Of a stretch of 64,000 bases of DNA, positions 5,376-22,057 are shown piece after piece. The DNA is from an uncultured Gammaproteobacteria bacterium. Its GTDB lineage: Bacteria > Patescibacteriota > Patescibacteriia > Magasanikbacterales > GWA2-37-8. Below the pieces are notes generated by a model. That model did no database searches. It saw nothing but the letters and a program-made list of their open reading frames with translations, and was not told the DNA's origin. The stretch spans positions 46,496 through 110,495 of the forward strand of contig CAZHNI010000002.1 in NCBI GenBank assembly GCA_964533715.1, read 5' to 3'. A program made the translations under genes and the position numbers. Position 1 is the first letter of the stretch. Every line of letters begins with the position of its first letter.

Positions 5376-5421
5376 GTCATAATAATAGCGTTTATCTAAA
5401 AAATATGCTAAAATATTACAC

Positions 5422-6618
5422 ATGTATAATCAGCCAGTTGCGCCAGAGAAAGTAGACCGCCCGGTGGTGCTCCACCAGGGCGTGTATAAACAAACCGCCA
5501 CTACCGCCGAGGCGGTGTTTATGATTACCGGCATGACCATTGGAGCCGGTATTTTGGGTATACCGTATGTTGTTGCCAAAGTGGGAATTTTAATTGGGCT
5601 CACGTATATAGTAATTCTTGGTCTTATCATGTTATTTTTAAATATCATGATAAGCGAAGTAGCGGGGCGGACCGGGGAGAATTTGCAGTTGCCAGGTTTA
5701 GCGGGCAAGTATTTAGGCCCGCGAGCTAAAGAAATTTTGTCTATTTCTACTGTGGTAAGTGCGGTGGGCGCGCTGCTTGCTTATATTATTGGTGAGGGCA
5801 AAGCTTTGAGCGCGCTTCTTGGAGGCAATTCTGATGTGTGGAGTGTTATTTTTTGGTCGGTAGGGAGTGGTCTTATATTAGCTGGCCTCCACCGCGTTAA
5901 AGTCGCAGAAAAAATTTTAAGTGCTTTGGTTATTGGCTGTATTACTTTTTTGTCGCTGTACTTATTACCACATATTTCGGTAAGTAATTTGACTCATTTT
6001 GACCCCAAAAATATTTTATTACCGTATGGCGTTATTTTATTTGCGCTCCACGGCACACCGGCTATCGCCGAAGCGCGGGCACTACTTAGTAATGATCGCC
6101 GCCGTTTTCGTAAAGCCGTTATTATTGGCACCTTAATTCCAATTGCGGTCTATATTCTATTTGCTCTTAGCGTGGTAGGGGCGAGTGGTCTTACTACTAC
6201 CGAAGTGGCCTCGGTCGGCCTCGGAGCCCGATTTGGTGGTTTTGTGTTGATTTTAGCCAATGTGTTTGCAGTGTTTGCTATGAGCACCGGTTTTATGGGG
6301 CTTGGTACGGCGCTGAAGGAAGTATTGGTGTGGGACCACAAACTGCCCAAATGGCTCGCCCAAAGCTTGGTCATTGGTATTCCTATTTTGTTATTTTTGG
6401 CGGGCTTTAATAATTTTGTTAATATTTTAGGTATTATCGGTGGCGTTTTTATAGGGCTTGAAGCAATTATAATGATTATGGTATATTGGCAGGCACGAAC
6501 CACCGGTCTATTTGCCCGTTCCCGGTCGGGCGCTCACCATATGTGGTTTCTGAGTGTGCCGCTTCTGGTGGTTTTTATGTTTATAACCATGCATAGTATT
6601 TTTAAATTATTAAATTAA
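5422..6618 (+). CDS. Amino-acid permease (about 11 TM helices; aromatic amino-acid / HAAAP-type transporter family-like)
   Basis: Polytopic membrane protein of 398 aa. The N-terminal GMTIGAGILGIPY motif is typical of Trp/Tyr-permease-like transporters. Confidence 0.55.
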   Translation: MYNQPVAPEKVDRPVVLHQGVYKQTATTAEAVFMITGMTIGAGILGIPYVVAKVGILIGLTYIVILGLIMLFLNIMISEVAGRTGENLQLPGLAGKYLGPRAKEILSISTVVSAVGALLAYIIGEGKALSALLGGNSDVWSVIFWSVGSGLILAGLHRVKVAEKILSALVIGCITFLSLYLLPHISVSNLTHFDPKNILLPYGVILFALHGTPAIAEARALLSNDRRRFRKAVIIGTLIPIAVYILFALSVVGASGLTTTEVASVGLGARFGGFVLILANVFAVFAMSTGFMGLGTALKEVLVWDHKLPKWLAQSLVIGIPILLFLAGFNNFVNILGIIGGVFIGLEAIIMIMVYWQARTTGLFARSRSGAHHMWFLSVPLLVVFMFITMHSIFKLLN

Positions 6619-6626
6619 AGTGGTGT

Positions 6627-6690
6627 TCGTCCCGATTTCGCTTCGGCGAAATCGAGGATCCTCGATTTTCCTCCACAGGAAAATCGGGAT
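6627..6690 (+). promoter_or_regulatory. Structured element in the metK 5' leader with mutually exclusive hairpins
   Basis: Three elements read directly: CGATTTCGC-TTCG-GCGAAATCG (9 bp, UUCG tetraloop), the palindrome GAGGATCCTC, and CGATTTTCC-tccacag-GGAAAATCG. An alternative long-range pairing CCCGATTT / AAATCGGG is also possible. GGTGTTCG is repeated at 6623 and 6703. Confidence 0.35.
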
Positions 6691-6798
6691 TGTTATTCAG
6701 TTGATGGTGTTCGTTGTTGGTTGGTTTACCATTTCGTGGTCGATCGAGCGGGTTACTTATCAACAACGTCCTTCTATCCCAAATTAAATATTCATATT

Positions 6799-8005: not shown

Positions 8006-9745
8006 TTATGGGGCGCTAACGGCGGCACCAAATTTGGCTCCACGATCGTCCGATGCTAGCTGATTAGAAAGGGCAGGGAGTTTAGTGTCAAAAATTTTGC
8101 CTACTACAGTGTCTTCTGCATGTACGGTTATTTCTTTTGTTATGGATAGAATGTTGCCAATTTGCTGTGGGGAAGGCGAGACGGAAACCTCAAAATATAA
8201 CCCGGTTTGGCTTTGGGCGGGCAGTTCTCTAAAATTCCAGTGTACCGTTCTAGTGTCTGCGGAATAGGTGAGCTCGGGGCCGATAGTAACGCTTTGTTTG
8301 CCGGTAAAGGCAACCCCGGGAGCAAGCGGGATGTTTACTGAAACATTGTCTACGGCGTTAACGGTGTTATTTAATGTAAGGAAAATCCAGTATTTAGTAG
8401 TTTCGCCAACGCGTGGTGGCAATGGGCCACGACCAAGCTGGTCGCCTTCAGCGGTGTAATAACGAATTTCATTTTTTCCGGAAAAATCTGTAGCCATTTG
8501 TATACTGAGAGGAGCGCTAGACTGCTTAAGCAATTGTCCAGAAACAAGTTCCGTTGATGCCTCCCAGGTAGGAGAGACGGTAAGTTGGTTGTTCGTCGGG
8601 TCGGAAGAGGCAAAGTTTTTTGCCAGTTGCAGGTTAATTATAAAATCATCTGTGGCGCCAGGTTTTGGTGCAGTTAAGGCGGTGCGTGCAAGATTATTAA
8701 TAATTAAATCTTCATGATCAACGGTGAGACGGTTATTTTTGGCTGTGGCAATTAGGTTTACCGCATGCGTGTTAAAGTGGAGACGGATTTGAGCGTTTGA
8801 AAATGCGAATGAGCTGTTATTGCGCCAGGTTATGTGGAGAGGTAATTCATCGCCGCTGTTTATAAAGGGTGGAGAGGTAGGAAAATCGGTGGTCAAATTT
8901 ACTTCTGGCTTAATAAGGGATATGCTTTGAGTATTTCTACCGAGTGGAATTGGTTGTTTGCCAACGGTGATAGTTGGAACCACTTGCGCGTTAAAGGTGG
9001 TCGCTGAAGTTGGAATAGTAAGTGTGCCGGTAAATGTTTTTGTTTCGCCTCCTTTAAGGAAAATATTTTCAAATTTTTCTTTTTCAAGGGTGCTTTGTTT
9101 CCAGTTAGTAACAATCGAAATATTTGGTACGTCGGTTGATCTTGAGTTAAAAATACTAATAGTATACGGGAGTGGTTGGTTGGGGAAAGAGGACGAAGCG
9201 GAGGAAAAAGAGGAAACCACTATACTCGCAGGTAATTCAACGAGCGTGGAGCTTAATTTTTGCTCGGTGCTAGTGTGCCCATCGGCACGATATGAAAGCG
9301 TGCCTATAATTTTTATTTCGGAGTTAGGAGTTGTCCATAGTATACCGGGGAGAACAACGCTACCCTTAGCCCCGGGTTTAATGTCGGGAAGAGTAAATCC
9401 GTTTTCTGCTGAAAAAGTTGAAGATGAAATTGTACTATAGTCAATTATAAAACCCGGAGGGAGCCGCAGTGTGATAGCGGCTTGATGAAGGGTAAATTTA
9501 TTTCGGTTGGTATATGTTGCGGACAGTTCAACTCGTTCGCCACTTTTTATGCGCGAGGTGCCGAGAGAGATTGAAAAATCAACGAGGCCGGTTGTGCCCG
9601 GTTTCCAAAAGAAGAAAAAAATGCTGGCGCCGAAAAAGGCGATGGCCAATCCAAGAAGCACGAGATCGAACACAAACAATTGCTGGGCATGTTGATAAAT
9701 ACCATGATATCGTTTGTGGTATAATTTGTGAAAAAAAGAGGTCAC
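8006..9745 (-). CDS. N-terminally membrane-anchored extracytoplasmic protein of unknown function (579 aa, Thr/Ser/Asn-rich beta-type domains)
   Basis: Single N-terminal TM helix (LVLLGLAIAFFGASIFFFFW) followed by a large hydrophilic, low-complexity beta-rich region. Confidence 0.6.
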   Translation of the reverse strand: MTSFFHKLYHKRYHGIYQHAQQLFVFDLVLLGLAIAFFGASIFFFFWKPGTTGLVDFSISLGTSRIKSGERVELSATYTNRNKFTLHQAAITLRLPPGFIIDYSTISSSTFSAENGFTLPDIKPGAKGSVVLPGILWTTPNSEIKIIGTLSYRADGHTSTEQKLSSTLVELPASIVVSSFSSASSSFPNQPLPYTISIFNSRSTDVPNISIVTNWKQSTLEKEKFENIFLKGGETKTFTGTLTIPTSATTFNAQVVPTITVGKQPIPLGRNTQSISLIKPEVNLTTDFPTSPPFINSGDELPLHITWRNNSSFAFSNAQIRLHFNTHAVNLIATAKNNRLTVDHEDLIINNLARTALTAPKPGATDDFIINLQLAKNFASSDPTNNQLTVSPTWEASTELVSGQLLKQSSAPLSIQMATDFSGKNEIRYYTAEGDQLGRGPLPPRVGETTKYWIFLTLNNTVNAVDNVSVNIPLAPGVAFTGKQSVTIGPELTYSADTRTVHWNFRELPAQSQTGLYFEVSVSPSPQQIGNILSITKEITVHAEDTVVGKIFDTKLPALSNQLASDDRGAKFGAAVSAP

Positions 9746-9915: not shown

Positions 9916-10254
9916 TTAGTTAGATGTTGGAGGTGGTGGTTCAGAATTTTTTGGTTGAGTAGGGGAGAGGGTTTTTGGATTGGGAGAGAACAGGGGGTTT
10001 TTTATCTTCCATTTATCAACAAATTGGCCGATTCCTTTTTGCATGAGCTTGTTTTTGATAGTAGTATGGCGCTGTGACCATTTTACTAGGCTTTCGAAAT
10101 TAAGTTTATAGCGCCCGCCAACTACCACGTAAGTTACCTCTTGGGCACGAATGGCGCGACGGATAGTTTGAGCGTTAACTCCGAACAGTCTGCCTGCTTC
10201 GGAAATAGATACCCGGATTAATTCTTTTGGTTTGTTTAATGGTGTTTCATTCAT
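9916..10254 (-). CDS. Small helix-turn-helix DNA-binding protein (excisionase/MerR-like HTH_17-type) with a Pro-rich tail
   Basis: ISEAGRLFGVNAQTIRRAIR is a typical HTH. 112 aa. Confidence 0.6.
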   Translation of the reverse strand: MNETPLNKPKELIRVSISEAGRLFGVNAQTIRRAIRAQEVTYVVVGGRYKLNFESLVKWSQRHTTIKNKLMQKGIGQFVDKWKIKNPLFSPNPKTLSPTQPKNSEPPPPTSN

Positions 10255-10405
10255 ATTTGTATACTATAGTATATACAAAATTTGAATTTTTGTCAAGTAA
10301 TGATGATTTTATGTTAGGATAGATTCTGTTTGTTTTGTATTAATATTTATTTTGTGTACACTATATTATACAATTATTGTATACACTATTGTATACAAAT
10401 TGTAA
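10253..10405. promoter_or_regulatory. Array of TTGTATAC(A) boxes, a candidate operator for the adjacent HTH protein
   Basis: TTGTATA-ctatagta-TATACAA (7-bp inverted repeat) at 10253-10274. GTGTACACTATA and ATTGTATACAC-T-ATTGTATACAA-ATTGTA direct repeats at 10353-10403. Confidence 0.4.
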
Positions 10406-10536: not shown

Positions 10537-10566
10537 TTGACCATTTAGCGGGTTATCTGATATACT
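10537..10566 (+). promoter_or_regulatory. Candidate promoter (TTGACC - 18 nt - TATACT) upstream of the ECF sigma gene
   Basis: Hexamers and spacing read from the sequence. Confidence 0.35.
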
Positions 10567-10612
10567 GGAAGAGCTAAAGTGTAACACTTTTGTTTTTTTT
10601 ACGTCTTCTAAA

Positions 10613-11170
10613 ATGCCAAGTAAGCTTAACGAAAAAATTCTTCTTTACAAATTACTTACCGAGCGCGACCCGGAAGCTTTTGCAGCTCTGTATGATATAT
10701 ATTTAACGCGCATATATCGTTTTGTGTACTTTAAAGTTTCTTCACATGAAGAAGCTGAAGATTTGACATCCGAAGTTTTTTTGAAAACTTGGCACTATAT
10801 ACAGGAGAAGCGCGAAGTGGAAAGTTTTAGTGGTCTTCTCTACAGAATTGCGCGCAACTGCATTATAGACTTATATCGTCAGAAAGCAAGCAAGCCAGAG
10901 ATTTTTACGGATGAAGAGATTGACGCCAGCGATGAAGGAAAGTGGCTCGGGGCTATGAATGTAAAGGCAGAGAATCAACAACTGTTTATAGCCTTGAAAA
11001 AATTAAAACAAGAATATCAAGAAGTTTTGACACTAAAGTATATTGATGAATTGGAGATCGATGAAATTTCGGCGATAACAGAAAAAGGGAGGGTAGCAGT
11101 ACGAGTAACCCTTCATCGCGCGCTAAAAAAATTACGAGAGATAATAGATGTTGAGGTAACCGTGCAATAA
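10613..11170 (+). CDS. ECF-type RNA polymerase sigma factor (sigma-70 regions 2 and 4)
   Basis: Region 2: AFAALYDIYLTRIYRFVYFKV...AEDLTSEVFLKTW. Region 4: LTLKYIDELEIDEISAITEKGRVAVRVTLHRALKKLRE. Confidence 0.85.
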   Translation: MPSKLNEKILLYKLLTERDPEAFAALYDIYLTRIYRFVYFKVSSHEEAEDLTSEVFLKTWHYIQEKREVESFSGLLYRIARNCIIDLYRQKASKPEIFTDEEIDASDEGKWLGAMNVKAENQQLFIALKKLKQEYQEVLTLKYIDELEIDEISAITEKGRVAVRVTLHRALKKLREIIDVEVTVQ

Positions 11171-11172
11171 AA

Positions 11173-12543
11173 ATGTACAATACTATGGGGAATCAGGATT
11201 TGATTCAACAATTAAAATCTTTGCGAAGAGCGGAAATTAACCCGCGTAAGGAATGGTTGGAAAGCAACCGGGCTTTGTTGTTGTCTCAAATTAACAATAC
11301 GTTACCGCCAGCCAGCTTGCGAAGTAAAACAGATCGCTGGCAAAATGTTTGGTCTGCCATGAGTGTGTTTGTGCCACAACGAATTGTTTATACTATAGTT
11401 AGACCGATGGCAGTAGTGGTAATTGCAGCTCTTATAATTACTACTGGTTCAATTGGCGCAGTAGACGCTGCGTATCAAGCTTTGCCGGGTGATTGGCTTT
11501 ATCCAGCCAAGCGTGCCGGTGAAAAAACACAAGTAGTCGTGGCTGGCTTAATTGGTGGGAAAAATGCCGAAACAAAATTACATGCCGAATTTGCCAAACG
11601 TCGCGCTGTAGAAACTCGTCAAATAATTACACGTGATGACCCGGGAACGGTGGCGCAAGTAGTGGCAACTGTGGCAGATTTAAAAAATGAAATTTCTACT
11701 CTGAGTCAAAGTTTAAATGATGAAAGAAAAAATGTTGGTACGTCGCTTCCGTCTGACGTGGTTCGAGAAGTAAAACAAAATGCAGAACAAATTAAAACGG
11801 TTCTCCAAGATGTTAAAATTAGTTTGAATACCACTTCTTCCCCCGAAACCCAAGCTGCTTCTCAGGCGGTGAGTGAAACCAAAGATTTGGTAAAGGACGT
11901 TTCTTTAAAAGCTGTAGGTGTTATTGTTTCAAAACATTTAGATGGTGATCAATCTATTTCTAAGGATGAAGTAACCAACGTTTTGGGTAAAACAATTCAA
12001 GATGCCGCCCTAGAAGCGGGTGATGCTAAACAAAATGTATCTGGAGTAAAAATTATTGTTGATGCCGCGAAAGTAGAAGTAAAAAATTTGGTAAATGATG
12101 ATAAGACCCAGGGGGTTACCACCACACAGCAGTTTGTGGACAAACTGGCGGCGGTTTCAAATCAAACTGTGGCCGCGGTGCTTAAAACAGAGGCGATGTC
12201 CGCTCAGGTAGATAAAAATGTTTCTGAAGCCAGAAAGTTACTTTCGGATGGAGATTTGAATAAAGTGGTTGATAAATTGAAAGAAGCCAATGAAACAACT
12301 AAAGAAGCAGAAAAAATTTCTGACGCAACTTTGCAGAAAGCCCAAACTGTTTTGCCAATTGTACAGGTTATAAAAGATTCAACTGAGGATATTAATGCGG
12401 CAGTTGTAACCACGACAGCCATAAAATCAAATCCATTAACAAACAGCGCAGACGGTCCGGTTATTGTTATGAGCTCAACACTTGTGGTAAAACCAACCTC
12501 TACCCCAGTGGTGGTACCTATTAACGTTATTATTAAGAAATAA
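11173..12543 (+). CDS. Putative anti-sigma factor / membrane protein, DUF5667-like, coupled to the ECF sigma
   Basis: Start lies 2 nt after the sigma stop. Single TM helix (MAVVVIAALIITTGSIGAV), then LPGDWLYPAKRAGEKTQ (a DUF5667-type motif, recalled from memory), then a long Lys/Glu/Thr-rich coiled region. Confidence 0.5.
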   Translation: MYNTMGNQDLIQQLKSLRRAEINPRKEWLESNRALLLSQINNTLPPASLRSKTDRWQNVWSAMSVFVPQRIVYTIVRPMAVVVIAALIITTGSIGAVDAAYQALPGDWLYPAKRAGEKTQVVVAGLIGGKNAETKLHAEFAKRRAVETRQIITRDDPGTVAQVVATVADLKNEISTLSQSLNDERKNVGTSLPSDVVREVKQNAEQIKTVLQDVKISLNTTSSPETQAASQAVSETKDLVKDVSLKAVGVIVSKHLDGDQSISKDEVTNVLGKTIQDAALEAGDAKQNVSGVKIIVDAAKVEVKNLVNDDKTQGVTTTQQFVDKLAAVSNQTVAAVLKTEAMSAQVDKNVSEARKLLSDGDLNKVVDKLKEANETTKEAEKISDATLQKAQTVLPIVQVIKDSTEDINAAVVTTTAIKSNPLTNSADGPVIVMSSTLVVKPTSTPVVVPINVIIKK

Positions 12544-12779
12544 TTTTAATAATTTTAATTTTTATCTCTCTCGAATAATTTTGGCAGACCGCGAAGGTTG
12601 TTTGAGAGAGGTAAGTTTATCGAATATGAACAGTGCTCCAAGGTCGAGGGTCCGTAAAGGATTCGCCTGTTCGGTTGTATCTTGCGGGGGTTTTAAATTC
12701 TCGTAAGAACGGCCCTAGAGTGATTGACTCAGAAATTTTTTCTGGGCGCAGCCATCTGGGGTTCATATTAATTTATTGT

Positions 12780-15700
12780 ATGTCGAATGTATTAAAGATT
12801 GCTAAAAAAGCCCTTACACTCGGCGTAGTATCGTCCACAATTTTGTGGTCCAGCATGGTTTCGGTATTGGTACCGTCTGTCGCGCAAGCGGCTTCGTGCC
12901 CAGTCCTTAACCCAGGTGACATGATTAAAGTTACCGGCAAGGCTGCTATCTACGCTGTAAATAATAGTAATAAAGTATTGTATTTCCCAAGTGGCGATGA
13001 GTTCAAGAGTTGGCGCCCGACCTACGGCGGATATGTTTCCGTCAGTCAGGATTGCTTTGACTCTTTGCAAGTTCCATCAACCTATCCTGGCGCGGTTAAC
13101 TTCCACCCAGGTTCATATGTTGTAAAACGCCCATCATCTGATCAGCTCTACGTAGTTGAACCAGGCAATACCTTAGCCAAAGTTACCCCAGAAGCAGCGA
13201 AAGCTCTTTACGGAACTGGTTATAAGGTAATGACTGTGGCGGATGCTTTCTGGCCACACTACGTTAATCGTGGTGCTGACGTAACAGAAGGCAAACCACA
13301 CCCAGGCATGCTCGTCATGAATGGTGGCAAGACATGGTATGTTGACACTGACATGAAATTGCGCGAAGTAACCGCGACCGGTATGACCGCAAACGGTTTC
13401 CAGAGCAAATTCGTACACGTGGTAACTGATGCCATGATTGCTGGTATGAGCTTTGGCGATAAAATTGACGCCGAAGTAAAAGCTTTAACTGACAAAACAC
13501 AAAGCGGTGGTGTTGCAGCTCCTACGACTCCAGTAGCCGGTGGTAGCCTTTCCTTAGCTTTGGCTTCGGACAACCCATTCTCCGCAACTGTAGTATCTGA
13601 TAACGCCAGCACTTCAAATGGTGCTCAAGCCATGATTCCAGTTTTGAAGGTTGTCTTCACTGCTGGTAATGACGGAGACGTTAAAGTTACCAGTCTTAAA
13701 TTGAAGCGTGGTGGTGTCTCGGCTGATACTGATATCAGCAACATGTACCTCTACGATGGGGATATGTTGGTTGCAAGCAACCCAAGCATCGCCAACAACA
13801 TGGTTACTTTCAGCAACTCTAACGGTGTTTTCACCGTTTCAAAGGGTAGCTCAAAGACCATTTTAGTCAAGTTGGATCTTAAGAATTCTGTATCTGCCGG
13901 TAAAACTTTGTCGTTCGGCGTTAATGCCGCTTCCGACGTAGTTCCAGCCGCCAGCTCCGGTTCTTTCCCACTTGTTGGTAACACCTTTACCACTGCTTCG
14001 GTAACTGATCTTGGTAAGCTCGCGCTTTCCAACGTCAGCCCAACTGTGGCCGGTACTGTAGATCCTGGAACCACTAACTTTGAGGTTTGGAGAATGCAAG
14101 CCCAAGGCAGTAACCAGGACATGGAATTACGCAAACTCAAAATTACTATGGTTGGCTCTGTCAACCCAGGTGATTTGAAGAATTTCGGTCTTTTTGCCGG
14201 CGCCACTCAAATTGGTTCTACCGTCGCTGAGATGGCTTCCGACAAGACAGTTACCTTTGATTTCTCCAGCGCTCCATACGTTATTACAAAGGGTCAAACC
14301 AAACAACTAAGCGTCCGCGCTGACGTTGTTGGCGGTACCAATCGTACCTTCTATGCTTCGATCCAGAATTCTGGCGATGTCATTACCTTTGACAAGAACT
14401 ATGGTGTGTTTGTAAAGACAAACGGTACCGACAGCTTCACGATTGTGCAAGCTGGTGGCAGCAGTTCAGTAAACTGGACTGTTAACACGGGTACTCTTTC
14501 CCAGACCTTGTCCAGTGATTCTCCGACTGGTAACGTAGCTTCAAGCTCCGTTAATACCATTCTCGCCAGATTCATGTGGAAAGCCAATGGTGAAGATATC
14601 AAAGTTTCAAGTCTCAACGTATCAAGTACCATTACCGGTGGCCCTGCCACACCTGTCCTCAAGAATGTTCGTCTCTTGGTTGACGGATCGCAAGTTGGTT
14701 CAACCATTTCAAGCTTAACCGCCAACGGTGCTTCCAACAATGGTTGGGGAACGTTTGGCAGTAGCTTTATTGTAAAATCAGGAACTTCTGCTAAGGTAGA
14801 AATTTCTGCCGATCTCACCGATACATCTATTGGTGCTGGTCAAACAATAACTGTTGGCACCCCAGCCGGTTCCAGCAATGGTCAAGGCACTGTTTCTCTT
14901 ACGAACGTAAGTTCCGTATTGAAGAATGGTAACACTCTTACTGTAAAAGGCGGTACCGTTAATGTTACCAAGAACGCTTCCTTCGGCGACAAATCATCGA
15001 CTAACCCAACTGGTCCAGTTAATGCCCAGGCCGTCAAAGTAGCCTCCTTTGTGGTTACTGCTGGCGCGGGTGAAGATGTAGAACTCAGTCAAGTAGTTTT
15101 GAAGGACAATAGCTCCAACTGTATCGGAACTTCCCTTCAAAATGTATTGTTGAAAGATGCTTCTGGTAAACAACTCGGAGCCACCTGGACTAACCCGGGA
15201 ACCTCGAGCTGTGGAAACAACAGCAACACCTTTAACATCACTCCAGCTGTTACTATTTCCAATGGTGCTCAATACGTGGTTGATGTGTACGCCGATCTTA
15301 AGGCCTCACTTTCTGCCACCGCTATCATGAAGGTTGACTCAGTAACCGCTACCGGCAAGAATACCGGTACCGATGCCAGCTACAGCACTGCCGTAGCTTT
15401 GCAGAACATGTTTGTATCTTCGTCCGGCGCCTTAATGGTGCAAACCGACTCAGATACATCCGTTGCTACTAACCAACTCATGGGTCAAACCGATCAGGTT
15501 ATTGGCAAATTCAAAATTTCTGCCAGTTCAACCGAAGCGGTAAATATTACTCAATTAGTAGTAAGTGGTATTTTCAGTAGCGGAGCTACCGGTACCGTTC
15601 GCAATATTCGCTTAGTCGATGATGCAACCGGTCAACAGGTAGGCAGCGCTGTTTCAGCCTTCAGTGATACTGTGGCTGGTACTAATGCAGCGACCACCAC

Positions 15701-16505
15701 ATACTCGCATGCTACTTTCAGCAGCCTCAATCTCCAGATTGCCAAGGGTACTTCCAAGACCTTGTCTGTAAAGGTTGACTTTACATCCTACGAGGACACT
15801 GGTCTTAGTACCACCGGTCAAACTGTTGCTCTAGTTGTCTTACGCACCTATTATGGTTCTTCAGGCAACAATCCAGTAACAGCTACCGGCGCTTCTTCTG
15901 GAACTTCGCTGACAGCAACAATTTCTGATTCTGGAACTATTCAGTCATTCGCGGGTGCTATTGGTGGCTATGGCTCTACCTCCACCTTGTATCGCGCCAA
16001 GCTTACAACCGCTTGGGCCTCCGATACACCAAGTGGTGCTTCTTCACCATCATCCGCTCAGACAATTGCTAAGTTTGTAATTACCAACTTAGCTAACTCT
16101 GGATCGTACACAGCTACAGTTAACTTAGTTAACTTTAACTTCTCCACCACGATCTCAGCCGCGGCTGGGGCTTCCATGAGCCAAGCCATGAATGTCTATA
16201 AGGATTCGCTTTCGACAACAGCCTTAGCTACTACATACTGGACGTACACCGGTGCTTCAACTGGTAACCCGTATGCTATGTCTGGCAATACTATTATCAC
16301 TGATGCAAACTTTACAGATGTAGATATTGCAGCCGGCGCCTCCAAGACATTCTACGTAACTCAAGACACCAGTGCCGCCGCGAGCACGAAGTCGCTCTCG
16401 GTTAGAATCGCTGGTAGCCAGGTGACGTGGACAGATGGCGTAAGCAGTAGTCTTACTGTTATGGGCCAAGATCTGCCACTTCAATTCAAGACGTTCACTT
16501 ACTAA
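12780..16505 (+). CDS. Giant secreted Thr/Ser/Gly/Val-rich cell-surface protein (1241 aa; repeated Ig-like beta-sandwich-type segments; S-layer/adhesin candidate)
   Basis: Signal peptide MSNVLKIAKKALTLGVVSSTILWSSMVSVLVPSVAQAAS. The real start is the ATG at 12780. The listed extension from 12633 has no coding character. Confidence 0.75.
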   Translation: MSNVLKIAKKALTLGVVSSTILWSSMVSVLVPSVAQAASCPVLNPGDMIKVTGKAAIYAVNNSNKVLYFPSGDEFKSWRPTYGGYVSVSQDCFDSLQVPSTYPGAVNFHPGSYVVKRPSSDQLYVVEPGNTLAKVTPEAAKALYGTGYKVMTVADAFWPHYVNRGADVTEGKPHPGMLVMNGGKTWYVDTDMKLREVTATGMTANGFQSKFVHVVTDAMIAGMSFGDKIDAEVKALTDKTQSGGVAAPTTPVAGGSLSLALASDNPFSATVVSDNASTSNGAQAMIPVLKVVFTAGNDGDVKVTSLKLKRGGVSADTDISNMYLYDGDMLVASNPSIANNMVTFSNSNGVFTVSKGSSKTILVKLDLKNSVSAGKTLSFGVNAASDVVPAASSGSFPLVGNTFTTASVTDLGKLALSNVSPTVAGTVDPGTTNFEVWRMQAQGSNQDMELRKLKITMVGSVNPGDLKNFGLFAGATQIGSTVAEMASDKTVTFDFSSAPYVITKGQTKQLSVRADVVGGTNRTFYASIQNSGDVITFDKNYGVFVKTNGTDSFTIVQAGGSSSVNWTVNTGTLSQTLSSDSPTGNVASSSVNTILARFMWKANGEDIKVSSLNVSSTITGGPATPVLKNVRLLVDGSQVGSTISSLTANGASNNGWGTFGSSFIVKSGTSAKVEISADLTDTSIGAGQTITVGTPAGSSNGQGTVSLTNVSSVLKNGNTLTVKGGTVNVTKNASFGDKSSTNPTGPVNAQAVKVASFVVTAGAGEDVELSQVVLKDNSSNCIGTSLQNVLLKDASGKQLGATWTNPGTSSCGNNSNTFNITPAVTISNGAQYVVDVYADLKASLSATAIMKVDSVTATGKNTGTDASYSTAVALQNMFVSSSGALMVQTDSDTSVATNQLMGQTDQVIGKFKISASSTEAVNITQLVVSGIFSSGATGTVRNIRLVDDATGQQVGSAVSAFSDTVAGTNAATTTYSHATFSSLNLQIAKGTSKTLSVKVDFTSYEDTGLSTTGQTVALVVLRTYYGSSGNNPVTATGASSGTSLTATISDSGTIQSFAGAIGGYGSTSTLYRAKLTTAWASDTPSGASSPSSAQTIAKFVITNLANSGSYTATVNLVNFNFSTTISAAAGASMSQAMNVYKDSLSTTALATTYWTYTGASTGNPYAMSGNTIITDANFTDVDIAAGASKTFYVTQDTSAAASTKSLSVRIAGSQVTWTDGVSSSLTVMGQDLPLQFKTFTY

Positions 16506-16557
16506 GCCAATGTAGTGGTTTAGCAGTAACGTTCGTTTATCGGTACACAACCGATAC

Positions 16558-16590
16558 AACCCCCGCCGCAATGGCGGGGGTTGTTTTATT
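16558..16590 (+). terminator. Intrinsic terminator (CCCCCGCC-gcaat-GGCGGGGG followed by TTGTTTT)
   Basis: Perfect 8-bp GC stem plus a T-run immediately after the giant surface-protein gene. Confidence 0.7.
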
Positions 16591-16619: not shown

Positions 16620-18890
16620 ATGACGAAAATTAGCAAATTATTGTATTTTATTATGACTTGCAATTATATTAAATTTCAACGCTACAGTCTTTATGCAAGC
16701 CTGATATTACCGTTACTTTTTACTTCATTCACCTTTTCTCCCTGGCATTTTGGAAAAACAATTTTTTTTCAAATTTTGGTGGAAGTAATGGTTGCAAGTT
16801 TATTTATATATTGGTTGCGCGTGGCTGGAGAAAAAGAAAAGTTAGTTTTGTGGAGCAAAAATCTAATTAGGCGTATAAATTGGCTCGATTGGTCAGTGAT
16901 TATTTTTTTGTTAGTACTTACTATCACTGCCTTAAGCGGATTTGATGTAAACAATAGTTTTTGGGGTAACCAAGCGCGAACCAACGGCGTATTTACGTGG
17001 TGGCATTTTGTAATATGGTACCTATTTCTTCGTAATATATTCAAAGAGAAAAAAGAATGGCTTTATTTTTTTGGTGTAATTATCGCCGTATCGCTTGTAG
17101 TGTCGTTCACTATTTTTTTCCCAAATTTGCTACCAATGTCGTGGCAGAGCGCTTCTGGCGGTGGCATTATTGGTAATCGGGCATTTGCTGCTAATTATCT
17201 TTTAGTCGCAGTAGGTCTGGCTGTTTATTTAGCAATAATTTTAAAAGGTTTTTGGAAATATGCTGTGATCATGGCTACCATTATACTTTTGGCAGCCCTT
17301 TTTTATCTGGGTACGCGCGGGGCGCAGCTTGGTTTGGTTGTGGGCGTAGTGGTTGGCTGCGGTCTCAGAATAGTGTATATGTCTCGTACAAAATATCGCC
17401 GCGCCGCTTTCGTAGCTGCTTGTTGTGCGGTTGGTATCGTTGGTATTTTAGTCTTTTTTGGACAATCTAATTCTTTTCGTCAAAATTGGCCAAGACTCGG
17501 CAATCTCATCAATTATCATCAGCTTATTTCAGGCACCGGGGAAACCCGTCTTATGGCGTGGCGTATCGCGCTTCAAGGCATTAAAGATAAACCAATTGTC
17601 GGCTGGGGAATGGAAAATTACACTATTGTTTTTAATAAATATTTTAATCCTCAATTTCTCAAACATAGTTTTCAAGAAACGGTTTGGGACAAACCACACA
17701 ATTGGCTTTTGGAAATTGGTATCAGCGCGGGCGTAATAGGTATATTGAGTTATATAAGTATTTTTTGTGCCGCTGGTTATTATATCTTACGTCGACAAGC
17801 TCTGCCGCCTTTTGCGCGAGCAATTTATGCCGGCACGTTGGTTGGTTATTTTGTGGCAAATTTATTTTTGTTTGAAACCAGTAACAGCTTGCTTATGTGG
17901 TTTGCGGTGCTGGCATTTATATCCAGTCAACAATCCATTGGTACCGAGCAATTATCGCAAGCAAGTGGGGCGGCGCAGAGCCAAGCCTCATCATTTAAAA
18001 AAGTATGGTTGGTTGGTGGTATACTATGTATAGTAATATTATTGTGGAAATACAATGTACTTCCTCTTCGTGTGTCATACTACCTTCGCTCTGCCCAAAA
18101 TGCGGTCACGGCGGAATCGTGGGCAGATTATGCGCAAAAAACTCTCAGCCTGCCAAGTTTGTTTCGTGGCGAAAGCGCTATTTTTTTGGCAGAAAGGTTT
18201 ACCCAGCTCGATAAATCAGGGATTTCTATAACCAGTACGTCTACAGTATCGGCCGCGTTGGCAGCAGCGCACGTGTTAGATAAGGAAAGCGAAACACACC
18301 CAACTAATCCGCTCTTTGCAGTCTGGTCGGGGCAAATGTATATGGTTTTAGGAGAGAAACTAAACGAAAAATATTACGCCGATGCCGAGCGCGCCCTCCT
18401 GGTTGCTTACCATTTATCCCCACGCAAACAGGAATTTTTATTTTTCTTGGGTCGGCTCTATCTTCTTAAAAAAGATTTTTCCACTGCCCTGGCCTATCAA
18501 AAGCAAGCCGTTGCCGCCGCGCCAAATATTAGTACAAGCCATTGGTTTTTAGGGCTTACCTATATAGCAAGCGGAGATAAACAAAATGGGCTTCTCGAAA
18601 TTGAACAAGCCTTAAAGTTGGGCTATTATTATAGTTTGACACCCAATCAAAAATTATATATTATAGACCTTTACGCAGAGACTCAACAATACGATAAAGT
18701 TATTGAATGGTATAAAAAATTTATTATCGAAGAACCGGAAAATGTGAATTGGTATATAAAATTGGCTACGGCTTATGCAGTTGCCGGTAAAAAAGATTTA
18801 GCTCTTGAGACAGTGCGTCAGGCAATAGATATGTACCCGCCGCTCGCGCCCCAGGCCGCGGCCTTCATTAAACAATATCATTTACAATAA
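16620..18890 (+). CDS. O-antigen-ligase-domain (Wzy_C-like) polytopic membrane protein with C-terminal TPR repeats
   Basis: Motifs GTRGAQLGLVVGVV, GWGMENYTIVFNKYFNP and WDKPHNWLLEIGISAGVIG. TPR-like C-terminus. Paralogous to 22384-24441. The start may be the internal Met at 16653. Confidence 0.75.
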   Translation: MTKISKLLYFIMTCNYIKFQRYSLYASLILPLLFTSFTFSPWHFGKTIFFQILVEVMVASLFIYWLRVAGEKEKLVLWSKNLIRRINWLDWSVIIFLLVLTITALSGFDVNNSFWGNQARTNGVFTWWHFVIWYLFLRNIFKEKKEWLYFFGVIIAVSLVVSFTIFFPNLLPMSWQSASGGGIIGNRAFAANYLLVAVGLAVYLAIILKGFWKYAVIMATIILLAALFYLGTRGAQLGLVVGVVVGCGLRIVYMSRTKYRRAAFVAACCAVGIVGILVFFGQSNSFRQNWPRLGNLINYHQLISGTGETRLMAWRIALQGIKDKPIVGWGMENYTIVFNKYFNPQFLKHSFQETVWDKPHNWLLEIGISAGVIGILSYISIFCAAGYYILRRQALPPFARAIYAGTLVGYFVANLFLFETSNSLLMWFAVLAFISSQQSIGTEQLSQASGAAQSQASSFKKVWLVGGILCIVILLWKYNVLPLRVSYYLRSAQNAVTAESWADYAQKTLSLPSLFRGESAIFLAERFTQLDKSGISITSTSTVSAALAAAHVLDKESETHPTNPLFAVWSGQMYMVLGEKLNEKYYADAERALLVAYHLSPRKQEFLFFLGRLYLLKKDFSTALAYQKQAVAAAPNISTSHWFLGLTYIASGDKQNGLLEIEQALKLGYYYSLTPNQKLYIIDLYAETQQYDKVIEWYKKFIIEEPENVNWYIKLATAYAVAGKKDLALETVRQAIDMYPPLAPQAAAFIKQYHLQ

Positions 18891-18896
18891 AAATAT

Positions 18897-19580
18897 ATGT
18901 ATAAAAAAATTATTATTGGTGTTGTCGCACTCGTCGTAATTGGTGGGGTGGCAGGACTCTGGTATACGGGGTTTTTGGGAGGGGAGAGGGCCGTGCGCCG
19001 TTCCATAAGTTCTAACCCCGAATGGCTTGCTAACTACGAAAAGGCCAAACAACGCGAGGCCGAAATACAAAAAAACCCAGAAAAAGCCGGCTTGTATTTT
19101 TCGCTCGGCTTGGCTTGGAAGAGTATTGGCGAACTGGGCGGACCAAAAGAATTTTTTAATCGTTCGCTTGCGGTATATGAACAAGGCATTGCTAAATTTG
19201 GCGCACAAAATATTTTGTTTTATCTTAATGCTGGCAAATTGGCCGAACGAGTGGATGACTTAGCCAAAGCGGAAAATTATTATAAAAAAGCTATAGAAAT
19301 TTCTCCCGCCGATGACAGTGGCTACAAATATTTAGCGGAGCTTTATGAGTATCGTTTAAAAAAATCTAAAGCCGAGGTATTGGCTGTTTTCCATATGGGT
19401 GATATTAAAATGGTTAACCCTTCCTCGCTTTTGATGGCCGAAGCATCCTATTTGCATCGGGTTGGTGATGTGCTTGGTGCATTAAAAATTTATCGTGTTT
19501 TGGTTGAGGCGTACCCTAGTAACCAAGGCTACAAACGAGTTGTTCAAGAGTTAGAAACCGAAGCTGCTGCTCAAAAATAG
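18897..19580 (+). CDS. N-terminally anchored TPR-repeat protein
   Basis: TM helix IIIGVVALVVIGGVAGLWY followed by TPR-like helical repeats. Confidence 0.6.
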   Translation: MYKKIIIGVVALVVIGGVAGLWYTGFLGGERAVRRSISSNPEWLANYEKAKQREAEIQKNPEKAGLYFSLGLAWKSIGELGGPKEFFNRSLAVYEQGIAKFGAQNILFYLNAGKLAERVDDLAKAENYYKKAIEISPADDSGYKYLAELYEYRLKKSKAEVLAVFHMGDIKMVNPSSLLMAEASYLHRVGDVLGALKIYRVLVEAYPSNQGYKRVVQELETEAAAQK

Positions 19581-19785: not shown

Positions 19786-19903
19786 CCTTGGCACGAAGAG
19801 AGGATAGAAACTAGAAATTGGAAATTGGAAATTGGGGATTTTTAAATCGTCCCGAGTTTCTTATTTCTAGTTTTTAATTTCCAATTTTTCTCCGTGCCAA
19901 GGG
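19786..19903. repeat. Complex repeat/hairpin region: inverted repeat CCTTGGCACG...CGTGCCAAGG enclosing three tandem GAAATTG units plus interleaved complementary blocks
   Basis: AAACTAGAAAT pairs with ATTTCTAGTTT, and AATTGGAAATT pairs with AATTTCCAATT. The block order is not compatible with a single simple hairpin. Followed by the hairpins GGGAC-taaggtt-GTCCC and TCCGGC-tctaa-GCCGGA, the latter abutting the RBS GGAGGAGG. Confidence 0.5.
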
Positions 19904-19960
19904 ACTAAGGTTGTCCCAAGGCTTGTCCCCATTTCCGGCTCTAAGCCGGAGGAGGTTCCC

Positions 19961-20746
19961 ATGTACCAGCAGATCATCCGCATCGCCGCCCTCGTCTTCG
20001 CGCTTTTCGTCCTCAACTCCGCCCCGGCCTCGGCCAAGAAGCCGGCCCCGGTCGCCGAGATCGAGAGTCCCGACCTCTCCCTCGCGAAGGTCCGTTTCAA
20101 GACCGGCGAAAAGAAGTACGAGGCCGAGGACTACGCCGGCGCCCTCAAGGAGTTCGAGGGCGCGAAGTTCCTGCAGCCCAAGCGCATCGAGCTCGATTAC
20201 AACATCGCGCGCTGCCACGATCGGCTGGGCAACTGGGAGCAGGCGGTGAAGTTCTACACCGCCTACGCCGACACGAAGCCGAAGGACGAGAAGGAGGTGA
20301 GGGAGCGTATCGCGATCCTCAAGGAGAGGCTCGCGGCGAAGCCCCTCACCACCCCCGCCGTTGCCGGCACCCAGCCCGCTCCGCCCGCCCTGGCTCCCGC
20401 CCCCGCGACGCGGACTGACGGTGGCGTCACGCCCGCGGCTCCCGCCACCCCCTACGCCGGCAGCAAGCCGAACCTCAACCTGCCGGCCCCCGCCCCGGCC
20501 CCGCCCGCCGCGACTGTCCCGCTCGTTCCGACGACCCAGCCCGTGGCCCCCACGTCGACCAGCCCGCCCTTCTACAAGAAGTGGTGGTTCTGGACGGCCG
20601 TGGGCGCCGCCGCGCTCGTCGCGGTCGGCGTCGGCATCGGCGTCGGAGCTTCGCGGGAAACCACCTATTCCCAGACCCGCCCGGACCTGGGGACCGTTCA
20701 CTTCAACCTCAACCTCTTTCCCACCCCCGACACGGGGGGGAGGTGA
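19961..20746 (+). CDS. High-GC secreted TPR-like / proline-rich protein with a C-terminal TM helix
   Basis: RBS GGAGGAGG. Signal peptide IAALVFALFVLNSAPASA. Long Pro/Ala-rich linker. TM helix WWFWTAVGAAALVAVGVGIGVG. GC-rich. Confidence 0.65.
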   Translation: MYQQIIRIAALVFALFVLNSAPASAKKPAPVAEIESPDLSLAKVRFKTGEKKYEAEDYAGALKEFEGAKFLQPKRIELDYNIARCHDRLGNWEQAVKFYTAYADTKPKDEKEVRERIAILKERLAAKPLTTPAVAGTQPAPPALAPAPATRTDGGVTPAAPATPYAGSKPNLNLPAPAPAPPAATVPLVPTTQPVAPTSTSPPFYKKWWFWTAVGAAALVAVGVGIGVGASRETTYSQTRPDLGTVHFNLNLFPTPDTGGR

Positions 20747-20749
20747 CCC

Positions 20750-22006
20750 ATGCGCCAGACCCTCTTCGCCTTGATGGTCGCCGCCCTCCTCGCGGGGTGC
20801 GGCGCCGACATGCGCCCGTGCCCCAAGGGCGCGGTCCGTATCCACATGCAGTTCGACCAGGTCGTCCGTGATCGTGGGTACGCCGTCACGGCGACCCTCA
20901 CGATCGATGGGGTGTCGGTCCAGACCCCCTTCGACCCCAGCATCAACGGGGATGCGGAAGGGAATATGGACTTCGTCTTCACCCATGGCTACCCGGCGAT
21001 CGGTGCAGAGGCGCAGATCGACCTGGTCGTGCGTCGCAACAGCGACATCGTCGGCGAGGGGCACGCAACCTTCGAGATCACCGAAGGGTGCACCTACGTC
21101 GTCGTCCCGGTGACCGCTTCGGTGGCACCTGAGGACGGCGGCACTGATCTCGCGCGGCTCGACGGCGGCGCTGACCTGTCTCGGCCGGACCTCGCCAGTG
21201 GCGACGGTTCGGTCGACCAGGCCACCCCGCCTGACCTCACGACGCCCCCCGACCTGACGCGCCCCCCCGGCGACCTCACCGTTCCGCCCCCTGACCTCAC
21301 CGTCGCGGGGGACATGGCGCGGCTCCCGGACGCGGCCCTCCCCGACCTGACCACCGCCCCGCCTGACCTCACGACGCCCCCCGACCTGACGCGCCCCCCG
21401 GACCTCGTGGCCACGCCCGATCTGGTTCTCGCCTGCAATCTCGACGCCGACTGTGGCAGCAAGACCGGTGGTGCCTGCAAGAACGGCACCTGCCAGCCCC
21501 CTGCATGCACCGACGGCCTCAAGAACCAGGACGAGACTGACGTCGACTGCGGCGGCGCCAAGTGCGTGCCGTGCGTGCCCACCAAGGCGTGTATCAAGGA
21601 CGCCGATTGCATCATTCCGTGGTGCAACCCCAGCACCAAGAGGTGCGGCAACATGGTCGGTACGGTCTTCATCGGATCGGAGGGCGAGAAAATTGACCTG
21701 AACAACCCGGCGAACAACCCGCCGCCCGTGTGGAGCTGCCTCGACGCCTGCGCCAAGAAGTTCGGTGCCGGTACCTACCGCTGCTCCACCGTGCTCGGCT
21801 CCGTCAACGGGCTGAGCTGGTCGCAGTGCTACGGCGACGGGCAGCACTGCTCCCCTGGTGGAGAGGTGTCCGAGAGCTACAAACTCGGCACCACCTACTA
21901 CTGCCCAGGGGCGCCGGGCTGCGCCTGCTCGGCGTGGGTCGACTACCAGAACAGCGGTGGTTCGGCCTGCGCCAACGCGGGCGCCAAGTCCTACTGCTTC
22001 AAGTAG
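20750..22006 (+). CDS. High-GC lipoprotein with PPDLT(T/R)P repeats and a Cys-rich C-terminal domain
   Basis: Lipobox LLAGCGA. RBS GGGAGG overlaps the upstream stop. Repeated TPPDLTTPPDLTRPP. About 30 Cys in the C-terminal 190 aa (CxxGxCxxxxC patterns). The antisense ORF 19874-22150 is rejected. Confidence 0.7.
   Translation: MRQTLFALMVAALLAGCGADMRPCPKGAVRIHMQFDQVVRDRGYAVTATLTIDGVSVQTPFDPSINGDAEGNMDFVFTHGYPAIGAEAQIDLVVRRNSDIVGEGHATFEITEGCTYVVVPVTASVAPEDGGTDLARLDGGADLSRPDLASGDGSVDQATPPDLTTPPDLTRPPGDLTVPPPDLTVAGDMARLPDAALPDLTTAPPDLTTPPDLTRPPDLVATPDLVLACNLDADCGSKTGGACKNGTCQPPACTDGLKNQDETDVDCGGAKCVPCVPTKACIKDADCIIPWCNPSTKRCGNMVGTVFIGSEGEKIDLNNPANNPPPVWSCLDACAKKFGAGTYRCSTVLGSVNGLSWSQCYGDGQHCSPGGEVSESYKLGTTYYCPGAPGCACSAWVDYQNSGGSACANAGAKSYCFK
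21226..21398 (+). repeat. Two copies of a ~43-bp direct repeat (CCCCGCCTGACCTCACGACGCCCCCCGACCTGACGCGCCCCCC) encoding the PPDLTTPPDLTRPP motif
   Basis: Identical DNA blocks at 21226-21268 and 21356-21398. Confidence 0.6.
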
Positions 22007-22011
22007 ACCCC

Positions 22012-22057
22012 CGCCAGAGGGCGGAGCCCACTTCGGTGGTGCTCCGCCCTCGGCGGA
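22012..22057 (+). other. GC-rich hairpin (GCCAGAGGGCGGAGC...GCTCCGCCCTCGGCGG) at the 3' end of the high-GC islet
   Basis: Near-perfect 16-bp inverted repeat with no T-run after it. Confidence 0.4.

Follow-up and report, generated by a model that had tools for sequence, protein, structure and literature searches.

Conserved linkage of an ECF sigma factor gene, a DUF5667 membrane-protein gene and a gene for a giant S-layer-like protein in Patescibacteria, with a folded leader RNA

In the SigW-RsiW, SigX-RsiX and SigM-YhdLK systems of Bacillus subtilis, a two-domain sigma factor (regions 2 and 4) of the extracytoplasmic function (ECF) type is encoded just upstream of a single-pass membrane protein, and the two genes nearly overlap. 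In Streptomyces, an ECF sigma factor, sigma-BldN, and its atypical membrane anti-sigma factor, RsbN, serve the production of outer-surface proteins; the BldN targets, the chaplin and rodlin sheath genes, are dispersed, have BldN promoters of their own and encode small amyloid proteins. The surface-layer (S-layer) genes slpA of Lactobacillus, slpA of Thermus and rsaA of Caulobacter have long folded leaders with an open start region. These features, like those of the other known systems compared below, are established knowledge, apart from the TIGR model scores, a structural match to EccB and the content of one preprint. Here we describe a locus that recalls all of these systems. It lies on contig CAZHNI010000002.1, in a stretch of 64,000 nucleotides (64 kb) that we call the window and number from its first letter, and it comprises an ECF sigma factor gene, a gene for a DUF5667 membrane protein and, behind a 236-nt leader, a gene for a secreted, S-layer-like protein of 1241 aa.

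The locus resembles the B. subtilis operons in its two-domain sigma factor and in the single-pass membrane-protein gene that nearly overlaps it downstream. As in the SigX and SigW systems, TGTAAC-N16-CGTC stands upstream of the sigma gene, and a predicted housekeeping promoter is present as well, as is the case for sigM and sigX. Unlike in the B. subtilis operons, the partner is a DUF5667 protein without a zinc finger (zf-HC2) or a recognized anti-sigma domain; the predicted ECF promoter lies hard against the start codon, so that the message would be leaderless; the putative operon continues through a structured RNA into a giant structural gene; and no dispersed regulon was detectable in the available sequence. 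Sigma-BldN/RsbN offers the closest functional analogy, with the difference that the cargo here is not a set of small amyloids but a 1241-aa array of immunoglobulin-like (Ig-like) domains. This protein resembles S-layer proteins in being secreted, Cys-poor, rich in Ser, Thr, Ala and Val, multidomain and equipped with a (putative) terminal anchoring module, and its gene resembles slpA and rsaA in its long folded leader and open start region. Unlike the slpA and rsaA leaders, this one lies between cistrons and not behind a dedicated promoter, and unlike known S-layer proteins the product has no SLH or CWB2 domain, and its lattice is a putative one.

Much of bacterial diversity belongs to the Patescibacteria, ultrasmall cells that are nearly all uncultured and whose genomes of ~1 Mb encode few regulators. 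Their envelope, on which a regular outer layer has been seen by electron microscopy, is central to attachment to, and life off, other cells. In well over a hundred sampled loci, the giant surface protein described here is accompanied by an ECF sigma factor and the membrane protein paired with it and by a divergently encoded DNA-binding protein with conserved, operator-like repeats; the Magasanikbacteria-type clade adds a third element, a previously undescribed structured RNA. The module appears to be a conserved surface-protein expression unit of Patescibacteria (Magasanikbacteria, Falkowbacteria and related groups). Its classes of component are known (ECF pairs, autoregulated ECF promoters, structured S-layer leaders and terminal anchoring modules), and their combination was not found described. 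Nor did the searchable literature yield an S-layer-type gene with a sigma/anti-sigma pair of its own. If the protein is an S-layer subunit, this would be, to our knowledge, the first case of an S-layer gene wired to such a pair. What emerges from the analysis is a promoter motif, a start that is probably leaderless, a candidate for an RNA family, a probably wall-binding terminal module found in ~1200 protein clusters, and a functional context for DUF5667.

Conservation of the gene pair and the surface-protein gene

Gene calls in the window were made by translating open reading frames (ORFs) and scanning them with Pfam and NCBIfam (TIGR) models. The sigma gene (10613 to 11170, plus strand) encodes a 185-aa protein that holds regions 2 and 4 only (Sigma70_r2, 49 bits; Sigma70_r4_2, 43 bits) and passes the sigma70-ECF model TIGR02937 with 82 bits (cutoff, 42.9), which places it in the ECF group (group 4). 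The best specific model was TIGR02952, the equivalog of the BldN family. Because the score, 123.2 bits, fell below the cutoff of 206.45, the protein is not a member of that family, in which it differs from sigma-BldN.

The next gene (11173 to 12543, plus strand) begins 2 nt past the sigma stop codon. It encodes a 456-aa protein with a DUF5667 match (PF18915; 42.4 bits, gathering score 27) at residues 103 to 214 and a single hydrophobic segment at residues ~70 to 100, where KD19 peaks at 2.45 (residues 71 to 89). From its sequence, the presumed topology is ~70 cytoplasmic residues, a transmembrane segment at ~70 to 100 and ~350 residues outside the cell. Conservation is highest at residues 21 to 40 and 101 to 120, and the C terminus is the least conserved part. 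A sequence search of solved structures returned no relative of this protein, and in the searchable literature we found no paper mentioning the DUF5667 family. We presume that the protein is the anti-sigma factor of the adjacent ECF sigma factor. A first-pass annotation, made by a model from the letters of the window, had proposed a sigma/anti-sigma pair separated by 2 nt, and the gene pair is present as described.

We then looked at the linkage of the three genes from both sides. A genome scan anchored on the large protein and limited to one genome per species gave 54 loci, of which 41 were nonredundant and had a full-length homolog and enough upstream DNA; the sigma/DUF5667 pair lay upstream of the surface-protein gene in all 41. 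For the reverse test, metagenomes were scanned with the sigma alignment, a sigma factor being counted as orthologous at a profile score of at least 150 and at least 2.5 kb of downstream sequence being required. Both a DUF5667 gene and the surface-protein gene followed in each of the 39 metagenome loci with an orthologous sigma factor. Distant sigma factors were found in six metagenome loci, none of which carried the surface-protein gene, and their neighbors were unrelated. Among five diverse relatives of the large protein, with identities from 61 down to 32%, a sigma gene and a DUF5667 gene stood directly upstream in all five. Where genes had been called (L001 to L005), the gap between the sigma and DUF5667 genes measured 2 to 11 nt, the DUF5667 gene always coming directly after the sigma gene. 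The conserved unit spans protein identities of 32 to 74%, and the relatives of the large protein, which number in the hundreds, all come from Patescibacteria (Magasanik-, Falkow-, Kuenen- and Parcubacteria). The genes for the sigma factor, the DUF5667 protein and the surface protein are therefore one conserved unit, far beyond what chance would produce. The first-pass annotation had tied the sigma pair to the surface protein and had named an orthologous pair without it as the observation that would speak against the tie; no such pair was encountered.

Some of the records examined have irregularities. In L039, the anti-sigma gene (5405 to 6776) and a DUF11-like gene (2245 to 4003) each appear as two overlapping ORFs, as does the surface-protein gene of L075 (5732 to 9525); a frameshift or an assembly error would explain each case. 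Contigs with this Patescibacteria-specific locus (L007 to L011, L017 to L020, L029 and others) are often titled "uncultured Gammaproteobacteria bacterium," and one is titled "Candidatus Udaeobacter sp." Such titles are probably those of mislabeled public records.

Promoters and leader RNA

An ECF-type promoter, TGTAAC-N16-CGTC, is predicted at 10580 to 10605 (plus strand), and an exact match to it stands upstream of the sigma gene in 41 of 42 genome loci. Seven nucleotides separate CGTC from the sigma ATG, and this register is fixed in all of the 42 loci but L032 and L040, where the motif lies ~100 to 125 nt further upstream. The motif, which we take to resemble the SigX/SigW-type consensus of B. 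subtilis, also precedes the sigma gene in most metagenome loci. The match at 10580 to 10605 is the only exact one in the window, and no second ECF motif at a conserved position occurred in ~840 kb of related loci from the genome set anchored on the large protein. As a predicted motif, this pairing of AAC (−35) with CGT (−10) at the sigma gene's own promoter is the arrangement expected of ECF autoregulation. Since the −10 element lies 7 nt from the ATG, too close to leave space for a ribosome-binding site, we infer that the sigma gene is autoregulated and that its mRNA is leaderless or nearly so. A consensus scan placed a second promoter, of the sigma-70 type, at 10537 to 10566 (plus strand; TTGACC-18-TATACT, with TG before the −10). 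TTGAC[CTA]-N17-TAnnnT occurs 46 to 160 nt upstream of the sigma ATG in ~37 of 41 loci.

The leader of the surface-protein gene is the 236 nt between the DUF5667 stop codon and the ATG at 12780 (12544 to 12779), as the first-pass annotation had it. That annotation also predicted an ECF-type promoter there, and this prediction failed. Neither GTAAC-N15-18-CGTC nor TAAC-N15-18-CGT gave a match in the leader, and a scan for the motif with one mismatch found none in the leaders of the 42 genome loci. Among the metagenome loci, a single exact match (in L064) fell within the interval scanned for the leader, where it may belong to coding sequence. An ECF promoter in the leader was therefore rejected; in the 42-locus genome set the motif sits upstream of the sigma gene. 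Of the dedicated arrangement of sigma factor and surface protein that had been suggested, the conserved unit stands and the leader-borne ECF promoter does not.

A leader with nothing more than a housekeeping promoter had been named as a further objection to such an arrangement. Scans of the leaders gave weak, scattered 8/12 matches only, and none in four loci. As a positive control, we used the gene that diverges from the sigma gene and encodes a helix-turn-helix (HTH) protein, where TTGACA-N17-TAnnnT matched at 10/12 or better in 35 of 39 loci. The leader of the surface-protein gene together with the 100 nt of coding sequence upstream of it reached this level in 2 of 39 loci, at scattered positions. 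Set against the control at the HTH and sigma genes, a housekeeping promoter in the leader was rejected. The DUF5667 protein is poorly conserved at its C terminus, so that no embedded conserved promoter signal is apparent in that part of its gene. Because the leader scans were negative and the control positive, the two predicted promoters before the sigma gene are the only conserved ones oriented toward the surface-protein gene. No canonical terminator was found between them and position 16556. There, as the first-pass annotation had noted, a strong intrinsic terminator follows the surface-protein gene and closes the unit (16556 to 16584, or to 16593 with its tail, plus strand; a 13-bp stem with nine G-C pairs, followed by TTTTATTATT).

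When leaders were aligned, conserved blocks alternated with variable hairpins, and the whole leader of the window folds with −84 kcal/mol (z = −5.8). Its first element is a long hairpin, P0 (12564 to 12612, plus strand), with CUCUC/GAGAGAG at its base and ~20 paired bases in the minimum-free-energy fold. P0 comprises up to ~20 bp; its base is constant, with GAGAGAG nearly invariant, and its upper stem depends on the lineage. The equivalent hairpin has a z score below −2 in 34 of 39 loci. No U-tract follows P0.

The core of the leader is a module of two helices, P1/P2 (12621 to 12682, plus strand), identified by covariation and with a covariance model. The strands of P1 (12628 to 12636 and 12665 to 12672) enclose an invariant AAGGUCGA (12640 to 12647) and the hairpin P2 (12648 to 12664). 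Behind P1, the window has UUGUAU at 12675 to 12680, of which UUGUA is invariant. In 46 sequences, P2 was 98% paired, and five of the six pairs in this hairpin carry changes in both partners. For P1, MAFFT and the first covariance model misregistered the strands (~61% paired), and we therefore used an alignment-free duplex test instead. The mean duplex energy was −10.2 kcal/mol for cognate strands versus −5.4 for noncognate strands, and none of 5000 permutations was as good. A covariance model, R1, found exactly one copy per locus, always in the leader of the surface-protein gene, in 839 kb plus 604 kb of searched sequence; this single-copy result covers the window, six nonseed genome loci and the closer metagenome loci.

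Downstream of the core come a hairpin, P3 (12681 to 12707), and a composite element, P4/P5 (12713 to 12761), on the plus strand at 12681 to 12761, with UUGAC and GCGC at the P4-P5 junction. Folded independently, 14 diverged leaders all showed this architecture (z = −2.3 to −7.9). Short leaders, such as those of L023 and L059, lack P3 to P5 and retain the core module. TTGAC...GCGC was considered as a −35/−10 pair and rejected, its flanks covarying as helix P4 and a conserved −10 being absent. The leader ends in an A+U-rich, unpaired start region without a Shine-Dalgarno sequence (12762 to 12779, plus strand), and the last 14 to 25 nt before the AUG are unpaired in 13 of the 14 folded diverged leaders. 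The start codons at 11173, 12780 and 16620 are alike in that none has a Shine-Dalgarno sequence at normal spacing and each is preceded by an A+U-rich stretch.

Rfam 15 gave no family match in the whole window, the best subthreshold hit being cow-rumen-1 on the opposite strand (19 bits versus 53; E = 0.4), and the window contains no tRNA genes. The leader is thus a conserved folded RNA and not a promoter region, and without an Rfam match it is a candidate for a previously undescribed RNA family.

P0 lends itself to a different account of the locus, in which the surface-protein gene has its own, nonconsensus promoter overlapping or adjoining P0, the sigma transcript stops at this hairpin, the sigma factor has its targets elsewhere and the adjacency of the genes reflects shared function or co-inheritance. 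P0 is very stable and comes directly after the anti-sigma stop codon, the GAGAGAG at its base is kept beyond the needs of pairing, and S-layer genes of cultured bacteria are usually driven by strong, dedicated promoters. We nevertheless consider this account improbable. No positionally conserved sigma-70-like site was found in the leader or in the last 100 to 200 nt of the anti-sigma gene, whereas such sites are obvious at the neighboring HTH and sigma genes, and P0 has no U-tract, while canonical U-tract terminators occur nearby. GAGAGAG itself was rejected as a −35 element: the next A/T-rich element follows it at 3 to 11 nt, depending on the locus, and TTGAGA is present in some loci only. 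In ~840 kb of the genome set, no other sigma-binding motif lay at a conserved position.

A second alternative concerns the core of the leader. P1/P2, with AAGGUCGA, UUGUA and the UUGAC/GCGC junction, might act as a riboswitch or bind a regulatory protein and so tune translation or decay of the surface-protein message instead of stabilizing it passively, possible partners being the surface protein itself or a factor responsive to wall precursors. The leader has the covariation-supported structured core of a cis-regulatory RNA, and the combination of invariant nucleotides in junctions and loops with covarying helices is typical of RNAs that bind ligands or proteins. Moreover, the module is strictly gene specific and is kept in the shortest leaders, which lack P3 to P5. 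On the other side, no U-tract stands behind any helix and the start codon is unmasked, so that no riboswitch-type expression platform is seen: there is no terminator after a helix and no Shine-Dalgarno sequence to occlude, the start region being mostly unpaired. The sequence also names no candidate ligand or partner. On this evidence, a sensor RNA seems rather unlikely.

The secreted protein and the proposed mechanism

The surface-protein gene (12780 to 16505, plus strand) encodes a 1241-aa protein with a signal peptide, an N-terminal module and a beta-sandwich array. We placed its start at ATG 12780, although the ORF is open from GTG 12633, because the N termini of homologs read M[ST][ND]V[LI]K... 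The signal peptide (12780 to 12890; MSNVLKIAKKALTLGVVSSTILWSSMVSVLVPSVAQA|AS) is of the Sec type by the look of its sequence. Ser (13.1%), Thr (12.0%), Val (10.6%), Ala (10.0%) and Gly (9.4%) dominate the composition, and there are four Cys residues. No Pfam or NCBIfam model matched the protein, and SLH, CWB2 and other known anchor domains are absent. A self-BLAST found no internal sequence repeats, because the domains are too diverged for repeats to be visible in this way. An AlphaFold2 model built with 76 homologs (mean predicted local distance difference test [pLDDT] score, 87.7) begins with an alpha/beta N-terminal domain, which a short linker joins to ~nine beta-sandwich domains. The signal-peptide-bearing array of beta-sandwich-like segments described in the first-pass annotation is thus borne out by both sequence and model. 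Foldseek comparison with the PDB returned only generic proteins with tandem Ig-like or macroglobulin domains, all with template-modeling (TM) scores of 0.2 or less; they included alpha-2-macroglobulins, PrgB, integrin legs and antigen I/II C123, and an archaeal S-layer protein stood at rank 49.

Homologs are numerous. A first search found more than 260 and a second more than 1300, the latter with no name other than "hypothetical protein" and from Falkowbacteria and Parcubacteria. Most of the 240 relatives listed, of the more than 1300 found, are ~1160 to 1280 aa long, down to 32% identity. In the genome scan, no genome record yielded more than one full-length copy. The outer domains diverge fast, with 32 to 45% identity between clades whose sigma factors are ~60% identical.

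The N-terminal module (residues 38 to 245; 12891 to 13514, plus strand) modeled alone as three beta-beta-beta-alpha-beta-alpha repeats (AlphaFold2; pLDDT, 95.5; predicted TM score, 0.89). When the N-terminal 307 aa were used in a sequence search of solved structures, there was no match. An exhaustive search found the module in 1195 protein clusters, in proteins of 198 to 3159 aa, and always at an end, either right after the signal peptide or at the extreme C terminus. In three full-length homologs (P0028, P0061 and P0073), PG_binding_1 takes its place. Since the module is terminal, mobile and exchanged for PG_binding_1, it is probably a surface anchor, and it may represent a new family of wall-binding domains in Patescibacteria. 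The C terminus has no LPXTG motif or transmembrane segment, judged by its sequence and the lack of a Pfam match. The first-pass annotation was therefore right that there is no C-terminal anchor, although the N-terminal module probably anchors the protein. Among solved structures, the best matches of the module were the repeat domains of EccB, a component of type VII secretion. These matches are marginal (E = 5e-3 to 4e-2, TM ~0.2, 9 to 14% identity, with a different overall assembly) and offer a lead without classifying the module. For the EccB repeats, a likeness to PlyCB, the wall-binding subunit of a phage lysin, has been pointed out, and peptidoglycan binding has been proposed.

Instead of forming a lattice, the 1241-aa protein might be a wall-anchored adhesin or fibril by which these episymbiotic cells attach to a host or surface. 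Its top structural matches include the Ig-like adhesins PrgB and antigen I/II C123, besides integrin legs; Patescibacteria are thought to live attached to hosts; and fast evolution of the outer domains, against the slower sigma factor, would suit such a role. Adhesins, however, usually vary in repeat number, whereas length and domain count are nearly fixed here among the relatives listed, and no genome record yielded a second full-length copy. The composition, rich in Ser, Thr, Ala, Val, Gly and Asn and almost without Cys, is that of S-layer proteins. A 2024 preprint predicts Patescibacteria S-layer proteins of 1131 to 1274 aa, similar in size to this one, that form hexagonal lattices (10.1101/2024.05.28.596244). 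Nearly fixed length, apparent single copy, composition, fast outer domains and the sizes in the preprint together favor a lattice-forming coat over an adhesin, short of proof, and we regard the adhesin as doubtful.

The reading that we prefer, and to which we give slightly better than an even chance, is that the sigma factor, the anti-sigma factor and the S-layer-like protein are encoded by one operon with an RNA processing or stability element between the regulators and the structural gene. The three genes would form a single transcription unit ending at the 16556 terminator. Basal transcription would come from the sigma-70-type promoter at 10537 to 10566 and self-amplifying transcription from the ECF promoter at 10580 to 10605, giving a leaderless, positively autoregulated message, with readthrough from the sigma gene through the anti-sigma gene and the leader into the surface-protein gene. 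The sigma factor would be kept at the membrane by the DUF5667 protein and let go when a signal reaches the large external domain of that protein.

The most likely role of the leader in such an operon would be that of an intercistronic processing and stabilizing element. Long duplexes like P0 are of the kind cut by RNase III. Processing by RNase III at P0 would give the surface-protein message a protected 5′ end of its own and an open ribosome entry site. That message could thereby outlast and far outnumber the regulator message, and the amounts of the two products would be uncoupled. The product itself would most likely be an S-layer or comparable cell-coating protein, held on the wall by its N-terminal module while its ~nine domains form the layer. 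More speculatively, the ~350-residue external part of the anti-sigma factor may report the state of the wall or layer to the sigma factor.

Several observations weigh against this reading. A Pfam scan recognized no sigma-binding or anti-sigma domain in the DUF5667 protein. A very abundant coat protein made from promoters shared with its regulators would be unusual, the promoters of these bacteria could deviate from the consensus used in our scans, and P0 could stop transcription instead of being processed. The invariant nucleotides in the junctions exceed what a simple stabilizer needs. The core RNA module, as modeled, is confined to the clade whose sigma factors are at least ~58% identical; the Falkowbacteria-type clade, with leaders of ~450 nt, lacks the RNA module as modeled, and it keeps the gene order but lacks the TGTAAC-CGTC motif. 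As to the product, the structural match of the N-terminal module to EccB is marginal (E ~5e-3), and the likeness to the Patescibacteria candidates of the preprint is one of size alone (10.1101/2024.05.28.596244).

Neighboring genes

The gene divergent from the sigma gene (9916 to 10254, minus strand) encodes a 112-aa, HTH_17 (excisionase/MerR-like) DNA-binding protein, identified by matches that both lie below cutoff (PF12728, 23.7 bits, gathering score 27; TIGR01764, 25.9 bits, cutoff 28.8). It is the divergent neighbor of the sigma gene in 41 of 42 genome loci and 44 of 46 metagenome loci. A consensus scan placed its near-consensus promoter, TTGACA-17-TATACT, at 10296 to 10268 (minus strand). 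The spacer between the two genes contains operator-like repeats, TTTGTATAC(AC), within 10257 to 10398, with copies at 10258, 10355, 10378 and 10390. Such repeats occur in 2 to 10 copies per HTH-sigma spacer in 39 of 39 loci, and the k-mers TATACAA and ATACAAA are likewise present in all 39. They are likely the operator of the HTH_17 protein. One repeat overlaps the −10 of the HTH gene's own promoter, which suggests that the protein at the least regulates itself, and it is probably a third regulator of the locus. In the Falkowbacteria-type loci (L095 to L127), TGTAAC-N16-CGTC gives way to a conserved GGG...CCCGTTATTTTTTGTTAAA element, a short hairpin with a T-run, ~20 to 80 nt upstream of the sigma gene.

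The three kinds of regulatory element could be combined into a self-contained coat homeostat, in which the external DUF5667/coiled region senses the completeness of the layer or wall and frees the sigma factor when the coat is incomplete, the P1/P2 RNA, as a sensor RNA of a new class that binds a ligand or a protein, provides a second, post-transcriptional input, and the HTH_17 protein, acting on TGTATAC operators, provides a third. We think it unlikely that all of this holds. If it did, it would be the first known dedicated sigma/anti-sigma/RNA circuit for an S-layer gene and a rare regulatory investment for genomes of ~1 Mb.

Co-directional with the HTH gene is a gene (8006 to 9745, minus strand) for a membrane-anchored, DUF11/CLIPPER-like beta-sandwich protein of 579 aa (PF01345 DUF11, 30.9 bits, gathering score 24.6), with a hydrophobic N-terminal segment read from the translation. 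A DUF11-like gene lies upstream in 33 of 38 genome loci and 14 of 35 metagenome loci. In the window, a promoter-like site, TTGACA-18-TATACT, is found next to it at 9801 to 9772.

Beyond the terminator, positions 16620 to 19580 (plus strand) encode a 756-aa protein with Wzy_C and tetratricopeptide repeat (TPR) parts, followed by a 227-aa TPR protein. The first of these genes (16620 to 18890) scores 65.7 bits with PF04932, above the gathering score of 31.7, and its product belongs to the Wzy_C superfamily of O-antigen ligases and O-oligosaccharyltransferases. Further glycan genes follow at 22384 to 28382: a second Wzy_C-TPR gene (685 aa) and genes for a GT4 glycosyltransferase, an NAD-dependent epimerase/dehydratase and a PMT_2-type membrane protein that resembles protein mannosyltransferases. 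The setting recalls the Wzy_C-type O-oligosaccharyltransferases of surface-protein glycosylation (PglL, PilO and, for the S layer of Geobacillus, WsaB) in that a Wzy_C protein gene comes directly after that of a Ser/Thr-rich surface protein, with GT4, epimerase and PMT_2 genes nearby. It differs from them in that the Wzy_C protein is TPR fused and adjoins the surface gene in only part of the loci, a Wzy_C homolog being found within 3 kb downstream in 14 of 32. The downstream glycan locus to which glycosylation of the surface protein had been attributed is therefore real, and glycosylation is plausible, but it is no conserved part of the unit; the Wzy_C-TPR genes are lineage-specific neighbors outside the conserved core.

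Between the two Wzy_C-TPR genes lies a 2.2-kb island (19900 to 22100) of 60 to 80% G+C with sharp edges, in a genome of ~40% G+C. Its ORFs encode secreted proteins, one TPR-like (19961 to 20746) and one Cys-rich with PPDLT repeats (20750 to 22006). The 418-aa island ORF has partial matches (11 to 35% coverage), and the named ones come from Myxococcota (Nannocystis and Labilithrix). At the corresponding place, the syntenic locus L001 carries a small gene with an RF-1 domain. The island is either foreign DNA or an assembly chimera. Exactly at its left edge lies a long, imperfect inverted repeat (19787 to 19912; CCTTGGCACGAAGAGAGGATAGAAACTAGAAATTGG... / ...CCAATTTTTCTCCGTGCCAAGGG).

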